IMG/VR virus record: IMGVR_UViG_3300045988_067569
Reading direction: 5' to 3' (one strand)
DNA: 64,000 bases
From: a virus
Shown here: positions 43,832 through 64,000 of the stretch, piece after piece
How positions within the stretch are numbered: position 1 is the stretch's first letter
Layout: each line of letters starts with the position of its first letter
Position numbers and translations under genes: made by a program
The notes under the pieces: generated by a model
What the model was told of the DNA's origin: nothing
What the model saw: the letters and a program-made list of their open reading frames with translations, nothing else
Databases searched by the model: none

Positions 43832-43903
43832 TGCCCTATGGTGTAATGGTCAGCACAGATGACTCTAAATCATTTAGTCTGGGTTCGAATCCTAGTAGGG
43901 CAA
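43832..43903 (+). tRNA. amber suppressor tRNA-Sup(CTA), tRNA-Gln-derived
   Basis: acceptor TGCCCTA/TAGGGCA, D-arm ATGGTGTAATGGTCAGCACA nearly identical to tRNA-Gln at 30384-30455, anticodon stem GATGA/TCATT with loop CTCTAAA, T-loop TTCGAAT. Confidence 0.8.
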
Positions 43904-43920
43904 CGCCAAAATTAATAGTT

Positions 43921-44148
43921 ATGATAAAATTAAATGAGAATTATGTAGTAACTCCAACAGGAGCTAAAACTCTTATTATAGAAGAGGGAGACGATTGGAA
44001 TAAAGTTTGTGAGAAGGTAGTTGGAAGTAAGTTTGATTATATCTTTGTACCTCAAGAATTTGAGAATCAAGCCTGCTATTTTCTTCCGCAAATAACAATT
44101 CAAGGAAAACAGATAGGCAAGATATGTACTTATAAGGTATTGAAATGA
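43921..44148 (+). CDS. small hypothetical protein
   Basis: ATG at 43921; the upstream part of ORF 43846..44148 is the suppressor tRNA. Confidence 0.4.
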   Translation: MIKLNENYVVTPTGAKTLIIEEGDDWNKVCEKVVGSKFDYIFVPQEFENQACYFLPQITIQGKQIGKICTYKVLK

Positions 44149-44459
44149 AACAGTGTGCAGTTGTATTAAATGGAAATGATGTTGTCAAAGTCTCTAATTT
44201 AAAGAGAAAATACGACAAGATAATGAATAACCCTAATATGAAAATATTAGAGGAATGTGATATGGAAATGTTAGATGAAAAGTACAACTATTGGAATAGA
44301 ACATTAAATAGAAATACAGAAGAGGAGAAAAAAGAAGAGACTAAGATGCATCACTTTAAAAATCCGAAAACTGGATGCTCTATAACAAGTATCTATCCAG
44401 ATTTGGAAGAATGTAAATCATATATAAAAGACTGGATGGATTATGTTAAACTTGATTGA
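44145..44459 (+). CDS. hypothetical protein
   Basis: ORF track. Confidence 0.4.
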   Translation: MKQCAVVLNGNDVVKVSNLKRKYDKIMNNPNMKILEECDMEMLDEKYNYWNRTLNRNTEEEKKEETKMHHFKNPKTGCSITSIYPDLEECKSYIKDWMDYVKLD

Positions 44460-44608
44460 AAAATATAACGAACTTACTAAATCGGAATTAGAGGAGCTAG
44501 CAGAAATAACACTATTAGCTACAGAATCTTTAATTAATACTATTGTAGAAGAAGGAAAACAAAACGAACAATGGTTCTTAGATTATCTAGACAACTTAAA
44601 TAAGCTAA

Positions 44609-44977
44609 GTGTATCGTACTAATATGTCAGTAGCCGCAAATATGATGATGTTCAATTCTTCAAGAATTGAGCGTGAAGAAAGGGAAGTATATGAAAAGGC
44701 TCTTAAACTTTTACAAAGAGCTGCAGGAATTTCTGGAGAAACTACAGATGATATAAAAAATTTCGTATTTGACATTTACATTAATGGCAAAGTACTTAGC
44801 AGTTTAAGGGCTAGCTATCCACAATATAGTCTTTCAGATGATTCTTCTATATTATTAGATATATGGAATCAAGTAGACCATCAAGTAAGAAATATACTAC
44901 AACATGGTTTATATAAAGATACTACAATAGAGAAAGCAATTATTAACGACACTTTTGAAGGGTATGATAAATTATAA
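44609..44977 (+). CDS. hypothetical protein
   Basis: ORF track. Confidence 0.4.
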   Translation: MYRTNMSVAANMMMFNSSRIEREEREVYEKALKLLQRAAGISGETTDDIKNFVFDIYINGKVLSSLRASYPQYSLSDDSSILLDIWNQVDHQVRNILQHGLYKDTTIEKAIINDTFEGYDKL

Positions 44978-45167
44978 GAAAACAATAACTAATATTCATG
45001 AGCTGCTTCCAGAGCTAGACTTGGATACATTATTTAAAATAATGGAGGCTATAGTAGAGGAAACTACTCCAATTATAAATTGGCCCAATAGCATCAGAAC
45101 TCCACTTTCAGATAAACCTTGGTGGGAAGAGCCAAACAGAATCACTTGTACGTATAATAGTAAATAA
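44955..45167 (+). CDS. hypothetical protein
   Basis: ORF track. Confidence 0.35.
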   Translation: MKGMINYKKTITNIHELLPELDLDTLFKIMEAIVEETTPIINWPNSIRTPLSDKPWWEEPNRITCTYNSK

Positions 45168-45170
45168 AAA

Positions 45171-60277: not shown

Positions 60278-60496
60278 ACAATATGGGAACAATTTATATT
60301 GAAGGACAGTTTAAGAGTTCTGCCAAACCAGTAAAAGTTGTTGGAGGAAGTATAGGAGGAGGCTCTGGAGTAGACTAGGAAGTTCTCAAGAACTATGCTA
60401 CTAAAGCAGAATTGTAGAAGGCTGTTGAGGACCTAACTGCTTCCATAGAGAGAATAGATCACGATGTAGTTGATGAAACTTTAATAATACAATGAT

Positions 60497-62314
60497 ATGG
60501 CAGCAATCAAATCTATAAAGGTTGGGGAAACCACATACGATTTAAAAGCTACTTACGATGGTGCTGGAAATGTTATAGATACGACATATGCCAAGGCTAA
60601 TGCAATTCCAACTAAAACTTCTTAGTTACAGAATGATAGTGGATATTTAACTGAGCATTAGGATATTAGTGAATTAGCTACTAAGGGTGAGCTTGAAGGC
60701 AAAGTAGATAAGGAGTTAGGAAAGGGACTTTCTGAAGCCAATTATACTGAAACTGAGAAGGAAAAGTTAAGTACTATAGCTAATAATGCTAATAATTATG
60801 TACATCCAACTACTTCTGGAAATAAACATATTCCATCTGGAGGAGCATCTGGATAGATGCTAGTTTTCTCAGCAGATGGTACTGCTGAATGGGCAGATTC
60901 AAGTTCTAAGCTAGAAGAGCAATTTACAGCGCTAAATGAGGCTTGGGAAGAATTGTAGAAGGCACAACAAAAGCTTGATAAGTAGATTACTGAGCTAAAT
61001 AGTAATATGGATTTATATTCCTATGGAGTAGAATGGGATGTTACAGTAGCATCTCCGGAACTTACTAGAATAGGTAATCCTTTGCTGCATAAATCTCTTC
61101 CTATTCAATCAGCGTATAGAGGTTGTGTAGCAAACAATGATGTAGTAAATTACTATCTGTTTCCAGATGACTGGTCTTATAAAGAAGACGGAGAAACTCC
61201 ATCTGTCTTAGATGGAACTGATGGAACAGTAAGAGTTAATACTCCTAAATTTTATGGAAAATCTGGCAGCGATGGAAACAAAAGATGGGTTAGAACTTCT
61301 ACTGTCAAAATTGATGATTCATGGGTAGAAATTCCTGAACTATTAATAGATGCATACAGAAGTACAGTTGATACCACAGTCTCCGCAACTCCAAAAGCTG
61401 TATCAGTAGTTAATACTACTACTGCATTTAGAGGTGGAGGAAATAGAGCTAACTACGATGATTATCTAACTACAGAATTAGAAACTAAGGATATATTCAG
61501 AAGTGATTTAGGAAAGCCTAGAACTAATATTTCTAGAGCTACTATGAGAACATATGCAACAAATGCTGGTTCAGAATTGCTATGCTATGAATATTACAAA
61601 TGGATATTCTACTGGAATTATGTCATTGAATATGCTAATTTTAATTCTTAGGCTGCCTATAATGCAGAGTTAACTGCGGATGGATATCATCAAGGGGGTT
61701 TGGGACCTGGAGTTACAGATTGGGCTAACGCAGCTACAAGTTGGTCAGGATATAATGCAACATATCCACTTACGCCTTGTGGTTACTGCAATGAATTTGG
61801 TAACTTCACTGGAGTAAAAGATTTAGTTATTCCAGAATGTACAGTTCAAGATGGCACAAATACAGTAGCAACTCATACATTTAAAGTACCTCGCTGGAGA
61901 GGGTTCGATAATCCGTTTGGAGACATTTGGACTAACCTGGACGGAGTAGTTATAGTGAGAGCAGCTGCTAATGAGATTAGCACTGTCTATACAACTACTA
62001 ACGTATCGGAATTTACCGACGTAGTTGGAGAGAAAACCGTTGCAGGATACGAAGTAGCATCTGATGGTTATATTAAGGCATTTGACTTAGGTGAAACCGC
62101 TGAAATAATTCCATCCGCTGTTGGAGGAAGTGCTACTACTTATATTTGCGATTACCATTACTGCAACGCAAGCAGCACAGCGCTTCGCACGCTGCTGGTG
62201 GGCGGCAGCGCGCCTGATGGCGGCGGTGCGGGTCTCGGCTGTTTCAATTCTGCCTTTGACGTCGGCGGTGCCGTTTCCGTTGTCGGGTTCAGGACTCTGA
62301 ATAGAGTATCTTAA
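60497..62314 (+). CDS. tail fiber protein, DGR target (variable region at its C-terminus)
   Basis: N-terminal fiber-like sequence HIPSGGASG-TAG-MLVFSADGTAEWADS; contains ORFs 61007..61651 and 61700..62314 joined by a TAG; C-terminus LLVGGSAPDGGGAGLGCFNSAFDVGGAVSVVGFR lies in the variable repeat. Confidence 0.65.
62189..62288 (+). repeat. DGR variable repeat VR1 (GC-rich island)
   Basis: about 100 bp at the 3' end of the target gene; matches the template repeat except at template adenines. Confidence 0.8.
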
Positions 62315-62390
62315 GATATACAATATAAAAATCGATTTAGATGATAAATCGTAGGATATTACTTCTAAAAACCGTTGATTGGCAAAAAAA

Positions 62391-62490
62391 GTACTGCTGG
62401 TGGGCAGCAACGCGAATAATGGCAGCAATGCAGGTCTCAGCTATTTCAATTCTAACAATGACGTCAGCAATGCCAATTCCAATGTCGAGT
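62391..62490 (+). repeat. DGR template repeat (TR), A-rich with many AAT/AAC/AGC codon-like triplets
   Basis: about 23 mismatches to VR1 by hand alignment; each falls where TR has A and VR1 has G, C or T. Confidence 0.8.
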
Positions 62491-62632
62491 TATTATATAT
62501 TTAGAAACATTTTATTATTTTTTTTTAGTTTGCTAAGTAATATCCTTGCCTCTAGGCAAAAGATAACGTAGTGTTGAATGAAGGGTGTTAGTAGGTTAAT
62601 TCTCGAACGCTTCCGATGAAATATATAAAAAA

Positions 62633-63906
62633 TTGAAACGTGTAGGATATTTGCACGAGAAAGTATACGCTGAAGATAACATCGAACTAGCTGACGATAA
62701 AGCTAGAAGAAATAAGTCTATTAGATGTGGAATCAAGCAGCATGATAAGAATAGATTAAAAGAAAATAAGGAATTATCCGATAAGTTAAGGGATTTGATT
62801 TATCAAACCTCTGAATATAGTACCTTTATAATATACGAACCTAAAGAAAGATTAATCTTTAGACTTCCATACTATCCAGATAGAATAACTCACCATGCTA
62901 TAATGAATATTATGGAGCCTATTTGGACTAGTATATTTATAGACCAAACATATTCCTCTATACGAAATAGAGGTATTCATAAAGTAGAGTATGATTTGTT
63001 TAAGGTGTTATAGAAACATCCAGAAGAAACAAAGTATTGCTTGAAAATGGATATAAAAAAATTCTATCCTTCTATAACTCACGACATTTTATACGAAATG
63101 TTATAGAGAAAGATAAAGGATAAAAAACTATTAAAACTGTTGAAAGAAATAATTTATTCAGCGAAGGGAGTTCCTATTGGAAATTATCTATCACAATTCT
63201 TTGCAAATTTATATCTGACATATTTTGACCACTGGGTAAAAGAGGAGTTAAAATGTAAGTACTACTTTCGATATGCTGACGATATTGTGATTCTTGGTAA
63301 TGACAAGAATTATTTGAGAAATGTATTAGTATCTATAAAACTATATTTGAAACAGGTTCTTAACCTAGAGTTGAAGCCTAATTATCAAATATTCCCTGTA
63401 GAAAGCAGAGGTATTGATTTCGTAGGCTATAAATTCTATCATACTCATGTTCTACTGAGAAAATCTATAAAAATGAGGATGTTTAGGCTTATAAATCTAT
63501 ATAAATAGAATAAGATTGATAAAGATGAATTGAATAGAAGAATGAGGTCTTATTTTGGATGGATGAAATTTTGCAACTCTAAGAACTTGCTGAGAAAGGT
63601 AGAGGAGTTAACTGGATTGAAATTCTCTAACTGGAATGGAAAAGAAGTTAACATATCTAAGTTTTATAATAAATATATTCACATTGTAGAGGTTGTTGAT
63701 TATGACAATCATTTTCGAGTGCATTTCATGTATAACAATAAACCCTACTATTTTAAAAGTAAGAATAGGAGATTACACTATTCTTTGCTTAGATACAAAT
63801 TTCCTATAAATTTTAAAATAACACCTTATGTTAGAGCCGAATAGAATACAAATGGACGTTTATCCTTAGACAATCCAAAAACTTGGGAACGGTACTTATT
63901 ACTATA
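62633..63906 (+). CDS. DGR reverse transcriptase (TAG-interrupted reading frame)
   Basis: RT motifs RLPYYPDRITHHAI, LKMDIKKFYPSI, GVPIGNYLSQFFANLYL and YADDIVILG (motif C), then GIDFVGYKF; about four in-frame TAG codons; TAA near 63904. Confidence 0.8.
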
Positions 63907-64000
63907 ACTATGATATAAAAGAAATTAGTGTTGAAGTACTTGATTTAGACAATACCATAAAAGAAAAAACTTACTATAGTTTTATCTAGGTATTATTAAA

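Follow-up and report, generated by a model that had tools for sequence, protein, structure and literature searches.

How a phage could make full-length packaging, virion, and retroelement proteins from genes that are broken by TAG every few dozen codons is the question raised by a 64,000-nucleotide stretch of viral DNA, IMG/VR record IMGVR_UViG_3300045988_067569 (the whole stretch is called the window below). A first-pass annotation of its letters had described such interruptions on the plus strand from about 48.4 kb onward, together with a tRNA bearing the anticodon CUA, and had proposed that TAG is read as glutamine. Very probably, the phage translates a particular set of its genes with genetic code 15, under which TAG encodes glutamine and is decoded by the phage's own tRNA(CUA), with TAA and TGA as the sole terminators.

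The TAG interruption of the late genes is real and far beyond chance. In the 13 plus-strand genes between 48371 and 63907, 131 TAG codons but neither a TAA nor a TGA were found in frame in 5002 codons, which bore out the description of TAG-broken frames from about 48.4 kb. The two off-frames of the same late DNA contained 303 TAG, 457 TAA, and 308 TGA triplets. From 48.4 kb, plus-strand open reading frames (ORFs) of 189 to 793 codons, measured from stop to stop, contained 4 to 28 in-frame TAGs each and ended in TAA or TGA. The late genes, including those of a diversity-generating retroelement (DGR) with its variable repeat (VR) and reverse transcriptase (RT), are as follows, with lengths in amino acids (aa).

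48371-50506, plus strand: three TAG-recoded genes upstream of the terminase large subunit gene; 74, 437, and 188 aa with 2, 16, and 5 TAGs
50509-52872, plus strand: terminase large subunit (TerL), 787 aa, 19 TAGs, TGA end; phrog_6681, 1.9e-62
53064-55235, plus strand: portal, 723 aa, 28 TAGs; Pfam P22_portal; phrog_6547, 1.5e-47
55237-60495, plus strand: six TAG-recoded virion-block genes; 242, 243, 73, 524, 612, and 70 aa with 9, 4, 3, 12, 21, and 2 TAGs
60497-62314, plus strand: tail protein serving as the DGR target, 605 aa, 6 TAGs, VR at the C terminus; phrog_5302, 3.6e-85
62633-63907, plus strand: DGR RT, 424 aa, probable TTG start, 4 TAGs; RVT_1, 1.1e-19; phrog_1423, 5.2e-113

Translation with table 15 gave hidden Markov model (HMM) alignments of TerL, portal, the tail protein, and the RT that were contiguous across the TAGs; the TerL match to phrog_6681 was one unbroken stretch covering residues 92 to 712, and the 188-aa protein upstream of TerL matched phrog_16390. 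With TAG as a sense codon, the fraction of the 44- to 64-kb section covered by ORFs of at least 150 aa rose from 0.167 (code 11) to 0.809, compared with 0.174 when TGA was made sense; 48% of the 1- to 44-kb section was covered by ORFs of this size under the standard code. The longest plus-strand ORF between 48.5 and 64 kb had 221 codons under code 11 and 793 codons with TAG as sense. That the genes terminate with TAA or TGA was upheld; the added remark that the terminator is often TAA TAA was not, as this tandem ended 1 of 25 plus-strand genes and TGA TGA ended one, roughly as often as chance predicts. The idea that tandem stops act as a safeguard was rejected, since both the median distance to the next in-frame stop (6 codons) and the frequency of immediate second stops (roughly 8%) are at the level expected by chance in AT-rich DNA.

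The view that these TAGs are true stops, in a late module made of pseudogenes, assembly artifacts, or genes expressed as fragments, would fit the lack of any code 11 ORF longer than 221 codons in the late block, but it is refuted by the present data: the 5002 codons contain no in-frame TAA or TGA, compared with a total of 765 in the two off-frames, full-length HMM matches run across the TAGs, the same architecture was found in independent assemblies of other samples, and the pattern of amino acid substitutions among relatives indicates purifying selection.

The source of the window is a large gut crAss-like phage, probably of the Zeta group. Its TerL matches the crAss-type phrog_6681, the best annotated hits being Crassvirales at 25 to 28% identity and unannotated gut phages reaching 43 to 44%. 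Zeta-type traits included contigs of relatives of 143 to 195 kb, 26 tRNAs in the window, GIY-YIG and HNH endonucleases, and a PDDEXK-type gene (a faint hit). Because a megablast search of 48.5 to 64 kb against the GenBank phage collection returned no match, relatives were taken from a protein index and from IMG/VR. When the glutamine-translated TerL was used as a protein query, the matches comprised P0001, an entry of 787 aa identical to it, and hundreds of relatives, on contigs of up to 195 kb; the gene callers of the public collection already read through TAG in these genes. The DNA of five relatives, L001 to L005, was used for comparison, with TerLs that were 100, 84, 80, 74, and 75% identical to the window TerL, and over long stretches the window was 96 to 99.7% identical to public contigs.

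The residue encoded by TAG was sought in six late genes aligned with their counterparts in four to five relatives; TAG had been masked as X beforehand, so that circularity was avoided. The non-TAG partners of masked TAG were glutamine in 287 of 733 cases (199 CAA and 88 CAG), followed by glutamate (103) and lysine (73), whereas CAA- and CAG-encoded glutamine made up only 1.8% of these late proteins. With substitution frequencies taken from the same alignments, the log-likelihood was -1638.6 for glutamine and -2519.6 for the next-best residue, glutamate, a gap of 881 nats. The proposed comparison of recoded TerLs agreed with this: in codon columns with TAG in any genome, the other genomes had mostly CAA (53) and CAG (20) and then GAA and AAA. 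TAG positions turned over quickly between relatives, swapping with CAA and CAG. Distant standard-code TerL homologues were only weakly informative, with glutamine at 3 of 16 aligned positions; the TerL of MT835470 (43% identical, no in-frame TAG) had Q, E, K, R, or D at the TAG positions, and two RefSeq crAss TerLs picked as standard-code controls proved to be TAG recoded themselves. These alignments support the first-pass assignment of TAG as a glutamine codon in the late genes, where it makes up 50.2% of glutamine codons and CAG only 15%.

It is highly improbable that TAG encodes some other residue, such as pyrrolysine, glutamate, lysine, tyrosine, tryptophan, or serine. Such a reading could draw on the ARAGORN label "tRNA-Pyl", which is given to any CTA anticodon, and on the rank of glutamate and lysine as the second and third commonest partners of TAG. 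However, both are usual substitution partners of glutamine, and glutamate was 881 log-likelihood units worse than glutamine, the partner in 287 of the 733 cases. The tRNA(CUA) fits the canonical tRNA model end to end and has a 5-bp anticodon stem, unlike the pylT architecture, and no domains of the pyrrolysine pathway were found among the approximately 50 window proteins scanned with Pfam. In addition, glutamine has been found by proteomics in related phages (PMC9523058).

The tRNA proposed to decode TAG and its closest paralogue in the window are the following.

43832-43904, plus strand: amber-suppressor tRNA, anticodon CUA, tRNA-Gln-like (ARAGORN; Rfam tRNA model)
30383-30455, minus strand: tRNA-Gln(UUG), closest paralogue of tRNA(CUA) (ARAGORN; global alignment)

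The tRNA(CUA) scored 66.3 bits on the Rfam tRNA covariance model, for which the gathering score is 29, and its existence was thereby verified. It had also been placed at the head of the plus-strand block, a position that it does not strictly hold, since a TAG-bearing gene at 43292-43693 lies upstream. When tRNA(CUA) was aligned globally with the 25 other tRNAs of the window, the top score was obtained with tRNA-Gln(UUG), with 52 of 73 positions identical; the latter tRNA was present as reported, at 30383-30455 on the minus strand rather than at 30384-30455. The two tRNAs have in common U1:A72, G2:C71, G10, U35, and A73, the first 13 nucleotides (nt) of the D-arm (TGGTGTAATGGT), and the GTAG..CAAC 3' end. 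The acceptor and D-arm of tRNA(CUA) had been described as near copies of those of tRNA-Gln(UUG); the best score and the shared acceptor end and D-arm start stand, but the score margin is narrow and pair 3:70 is C:G where the phage tRNA-Gln has G:C. By itself, the tRNA resemblance is no more than suggestive of a derivation of tRNA(CUA) from tRNA-Gln.

The tRNA(CUA) is kept at the same locus in the five relatives L001 to L005, whose TerLs are 74 to 100% identical to that of the window, and was present in every relative whose locus covers its position, these five and the IMG/VR relatives included. In crAssphage cr52_1 (L017, NC_055888.1), a tRNA with the anticodon CUA at 481-556, directly upstream of TerL (571-2625), is annotated by RefSeq as tRNA-Gln, and the 5' strand of its acceptor, TGCCCTA, is the same as in the tRNA(CUA) of the window. 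The TerL coding sequence of cr52_1 contained 11 in-frame TAGs, and the TerL of cr115_1 contained 7.

The window contains a second suppressor-type tRNA, which adjoins a structured RNA of the RAGATH-14 family.

40577-40647, minus strand: suppressor-type tRNA, anticodon UUA (ochre type); ARAGORN; Rfam tRNA model, 57.3 bits
40674-40880, minus strand: RAGATH-14 RNA; RF03145, 156.6 bits (gathering score, 149.1)

RAGATH-14 lies 26 nt upstream of tRNA(UUA), and the same pairing was found in relatives. The alleles of the second tRNA were surveyed in relatives L003, L006 to L015, and L019 to L027. The orthologues had the anticodon UUA in 10 contigs and CUA in 5, and some of the CUA copies (L023 and L025) shared their D-arm with the UUA allele. 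The anticodon loop had 6 nt in L019 and L022, the D-arm and anticodon loop were lost in L024, and the whole tRNA was missing in L027; RAGATH-14 was kept in every relative surveyed, including L027. Covariation supported the cloverleaf, with 97% of cells paired and 9 pairs showing compensatory change, and 0 of 500 shuffles scored as high. In L013, a Pistol ribozyme scoring 62.3 bits (gathering score, 34.5) was found at 5596-5669 on the plus strand, about 330 nt downstream of the RAGATH-14/tRNA unit; no gathering-level hit to this ribozyme was obtained at the corresponding place in the window.

The U34 anticodon of ochre suppressors reads both UAA and UAG. The most economical reading of the second tRNA is that of a redundant second amber suppressor under relaxed constraint, whose C34-to-U34 allele can still decode UAG through wobble and whose weak ochre suppression is tolerated. 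It is unlikely that the UUA allele is instead functional and selected, reading UAG and UAA in an incipient TAA read-through or reassignment or in a weakening of host termination, with RAGATH-14 perhaps acting in the processing or control of the code switch. Searches of the searchable literature found no UUA suppressor in Zeta crAss-like phages and nothing on RAGATH-14, either alone or as a RAGATH-14/suppressor-tRNA unit.

Also improbable is a scheme in which suppression is carried out mainly by the second tRNA, in its UUA or CUA alleles, or by a host suppressor, with the plus-strand tRNA(CUA) as an auxiliary. The second tRNA does sit in the minus-strand block of standard-code genes and the tRNA array, where earlier synthesis would be possible; compensatory changes maintain its cloverleaf; and a U34 anticodon can read both UAA and UAG. 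However, close relatives have a mutated copy of this tRNA (L019 and L022), a copy with an internal deletion (L024), or no copy (L027), whereas the plus-strand tRNA(CUA) is present in every relative with the locus covered. Separately, reassignment of TAA was considered and rejected, as the late genes had 0 in-frame TAA codons; same-frame ORF pairs split by one TAA were separate genes in relatives or encoded complete domains and were not cases of TAA recoding.

Recoding applies gene by gene and not by strand. It had been described as a property of the late module; this holds for the virion and DGR genes, but recoded endonucleases were found on the minus strand and a TAG-free island was found on the plus strand, as listed here.

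22397-23032, minus strand: GIY-YIG homing endonuclease, 3 TAGs; GIY-YIG, 6.8e-10, residues 1-89, match spanning TAGs
23342-23977, minus strand: GIY-YIG homing endonuclease, 6 TAGs; GIY-YIG, 6.2e-13, match spanning TAGs
37268-37729, minus strand: PD-(D/E)XK endonuclease, 3 TAGs; PDDEXK_5, 2.2e-23, residues 9-136, match spanning all three TAGs
43292-43693, plus strand: conserved 133-aa gene upstream of tRNA(CUA), 4 TAGs (orthologue comparison)
43921-48384, plus strand: eight TAG-free genes totaling 1037 codons, one of them for a PD-(D/E)XK-type nuclease (46324-47238)

The coding fraction of the minus-strand block went from 0.753 under code 11 to 0.788 when TAG was read as sense; most of the seeming TAG-containing extensions in this block were spurious upstream runs, and internal TAGs in its genes were found only in the three endonucleases. 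Their in-frame TAGs indicate that these selfish endonucleases share the recoded status of the late genes. The orthologues of the gene at 43292-43693 had 0 to 3 TAGs, which were aligned with Q, E, A, or K. In relatives L002 to L005, the orthologues of the genes at 43921-48384 were TAG free or, in two small ORFs, had at most one TAG, and genes adjoining the island had up to 40 TAGs. In the window, three small TAG-bearing minus-strand ORFs are interspersed in the island at 45.2 to 46.2 kb, and its nuclease (46324-47238) had only a faint database Pfam hit.

The TAG-free island has the suppressor tRNA on one side and the heavily recoded virion genes on the other. In relatives, minus-strand genes that are inserted into it were TAG rich, with up to 22 TAGs. 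In L002, a 644-aa version of the 304-aa nuclease gene was found at 4813-6747 with a LAGLIDADG hit; the window copy is uninterrupted. A TerL homologue, P0003 (1131 aa), has Hom_end and LAGLIDADG domains inserted within TerL, and the window TerL is uninterrupted as well; these insertions in relatives are of the intein or homing-endonuclease kind.

The DGR lies at the distal end of the recoded block, and the statement that both its RT and its target are interrupted by TAG was confirmed by 4 and 6 in-frame TAGs, respectively. Its two repeats are the VR and the template repeat (TR).

62192-62289, plus strand: VR, a 98-nt repeat at the 3' end of the tail gene
62394-62491, plus strand: TR, a 98-nt repeat, 77% identical to the VR

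All 23 mismatches between VR and TR are at TR adenines, and 23 of the 28 TR adenines differ. The TAGs of the RT are at codons 127, 158, 292, and 404, and the motifs YADD and GNYLSQ are visible in its translation; since codons 127 and 158 lie upstream of YADD, synthesis of full-length RT would need suppression. No Avd gene was seen between target and RT, where the only ORF overlaps the TR. Avd is absent from most Zeta DGRs (PMC12386605), which argues that it is not obligatory. The DGR was confirmed, and its core, made up of RT, TR/VR pair, and target, is complete.

In the proposed mechanism, TAG serves as a glutamine codon in the genes for the virion, for packaging, and for the DGR, as well as in a few selfish endonuclease genes, and is decoded by the phage tRNA(CUA), which resembles the phage's own tRNA-Gln(UUG). 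Genes needed before or without suppression would avoid internal TAG; these comprise the plus-strand genes at 43.9 to 48.4 kb and the greater part of the minus-strand block of metabolic and tRNA genes. TAG-containing mRNAs would give truncated products until the suppressor had accumulated and outcompeted host RF1, and virion assembly, DGR reverse transcription, production of the DGR target, and homing-endonuclease expression would thus be delayed to the late phase. This dependence on the timing of the suppressor is inferred from a published model (Borges et al., preprint; Peters et al.).

Several observations weigh against this mechanism or parts of it. The margin by which tRNA(CUA) resembles tRNA-Gln is small (a score of 28, against 24 for tRNA-Thr), so that the tRNA-level argument for glutamine is weak alone. 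No RF2, GlnRS, or amidotransferase was found among the approximately 50 window proteins scanned with Pfam, and charging and competition with RF1 must therefore depend on host functions or on genes that lie beyond the window. The timing of tRNA(CUA) expression is not readable from the sequence, and a scan for sigma-70 promoters around the strand switch, with 35 sites against 40.4 in shuffles, was uninformative on this timing. The TAG-bearing gene at 43292-43693 lies upstream of tRNA(CUA) on the same strand, so that it is not obvious that the tRNA is transcribed first. Furthermore, in eight minus-strand genes the terminal TAG is followed by a TAA or TGA 2 to 8 codons downstream, and these TAGs may be either terminators or glutamine codons; the spacing equals that expected by chance in AT-rich DNA (median, 6) and is uninformative either way, and the genes neighboring these eight were nonhomologous in L002 and L003.

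The alternative that survives best is neutral codon capture, a possible though doubtful account. Once tRNA(CUA) was present in an AT-rich genome, CAG would have become TAG by C-to-T drift wherever this was tolerated, with no regulatory role. As a further and equally tentative part of this account, the early genes would be free of TAG only because they are translated before the phage tRNA exists, and the delay of late functions would be a by-product. The shares of TAG (50%) and CAG (only 15%) among late-gene glutamine codons are in keeping with capture, as is the quick turnover of TAG positions with CAA and CAG among relatives. Moreover, some Zeta phages have a CTA suppressor but no recoding (PMC12386605, Table 1), and a "pre-emergence" of suppressors has been described (PMC7886860). 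However, TAG is avoided gene by gene in the plus-strand block across TerL identities of 74 to 84%, which points to selection on particular genes, and preferential recoding of lysis genes has been reported (Borges preprint, 10.1101/2021.08.26.457843). Codon capture also predicts the same sequence pattern as the code 15 mechanism proposed above, from which it differs only on whether the delay is adaptive.

Other features of the window concern its tRNAs, its strand switch, and its auxiliary genes. The 26 tRNA genes identified by ARAGORN comprise 24 on the minus strand between 11.6 and 37.9 kb plus the UUA and CUA tRNAs, and the tRNAs for Cys, Tyr, and Met are present in two copies each. The tRNA-Asn(GTT), one tRNA-Met(CAT), and one tRNA-Cys(GCA), at 22054-22140, 23116-23196, and 23997-24082 on the minus strand, are 81 to 87 nt long and have long extra arms that are unusual for their isotypes. 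Gene orientation flips from minus to plus at about 42 to 44 kb, where the GC skew changes sign; the minimum of the cumulative GC skew is near 42 to 44 kb, adjoining the suppressor tRNAs. This switch of skew could reflect transcription-strand bias or mark an origin or terminus of replication. The palindrome AACCCCAGGGGG occurs at 43040-43051 and 43146-43157 (plus strand), 106 nt apart, in the intergenic stretch from which the minus- and plus-strand blocks diverge, and is absent elsewhere in the window (0.06 expected); the pair may be a regulatory or origin-related site.

The minus-strand block also contains auxiliary genes at 2135-2944, 3337-4887, 5742-6569, 31005-32978, 7007-8023, and 14865-15359, all in standard code. 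The set comprises a PRTase-like protein, an NAMPT/NAPRTase (NAD salvage), two SPFH/Band-7 proteins, an OmpA-like beta-barrel protein, and a glucosaminidase, and an RNase H was found in the same block by the Pfam scan. The glucosaminidase, a possible lysin, is without TAG, unlike the recoded lysis genes described for other code 15 phages.

Three known systems can be compared with the window. The Escherichia coli suppressors supE (amber) and supB (ochre) are derived from tRNA-Gln and carry a CUA or UUA anticodon on a tRNA-Gln-like body with U1:A72; the ochre type reads UAA and UAG, and GlnRS tolerates C34 or U34 and depends strongly on U35. These arose by single mutations in chromosomal tRNA genes and suppress with low efficiency, whereas the window tRNA(CUA) is a diverged, dedicated phage gene serving about 50% of the late-gene glutamine codons. 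Like the window DGR, DGRs of the Bordetella phage BPP-1 type have an RVT_1 RT with GxxxSQ, adenine-specific TR/VR differences, a VR at the C terminus of a tail protein, and a TR between target and RT; in contrast to them, no Avd gene was seen in the window, and RT and target would need TAG suppression to reach full length.

The closest comparison is with crAss-like phages that use code 15. TAG recoding, a tRNA(CUA), a bias toward late genes, and an amber-interrupted DGR RT are already known for this phage group. Reassignment of TAG or TGA in late genes of crAss-like phages was described by Yutin et al. in 2021, whose Zeta group has genomes of 145 to 192 kb and many tRNAs, with 26 of 27 suppressors being CTA (PMC7886860); code 15 in crAss-like late genes was also described in the 2021 preprint of Borges et al. 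(10.1101/2021.08.26.457843), and glutamine at TAG was shown by mass spectrometry in crAss-like phages by Peters et al. in 2022 (PMC9523058). Zeta crAss-like phages of 176 to 189 kb, with 23 to 27 tRNAs, a CTA suppressor, amber suppression, and a DGR, were reported in 2025, with amber suppression in seven DGR RT genes (PMC12386605), and the window agrees with this account in each of these features.

The code 15 crAss phages and the window have several traits in common: TerL, portal, and further late genes contain in-frame TAG, a tRNA(CUA) is encoded by the phage, TAG codons swap with CAA and CAG, replication and auxiliary genes are compatible with the standard code, the genome is AT rich, and TAA is the main stop. 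Nothing essential differs between them. The window has, in addition, recoded homing endonucleases within its standard-code block and a TAG-free gene island on the structural strand; analogous recoded homing endonucleases were noted for a TGA-recoded phage by Borges et al. Among the Zeta phages, ctoVY1, cthgQ11, 3717_85572, and ctHMy13 have, by the published Table 1 (PMC12386605), genomes of 176 to 189 kb, compared with 143 to 195 kb for relatives of the window, and 23 to 27 tRNAs, compared with 26 in the window. A GC content of about 35%, a CTA suppressor, and amber suppression are common to them, and in both cases the DGR has a tail fiber target and an RT gene with amber codons but lacks an Avd gene. 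For Zeta phages, only CTA and TCA suppressors are listed in PMC12386605 and in Supplementary Fig. 9 of Yutin et al.; the lineage of the window adds a second suppressor-type tRNA, with the anticodon UUA in most of the sampled contigs.

For annotation, the window needs table 15 or a mixed-code gene caller, as TerL, portal, tail proteins, and the DGR are otherwise shredded into pieces of at most 221 codons. The phage is a further example of a virus in which a stop codon takes on a new meaning in selected genes, and it adds no new principle. Its additions to what is known of the group are modest: a second suppressor locus, linked to RAGATH-14, that varies between amber, ochre-type, and decayed forms, and an avoidance of TAG that is conserved by gene rather than by strand.

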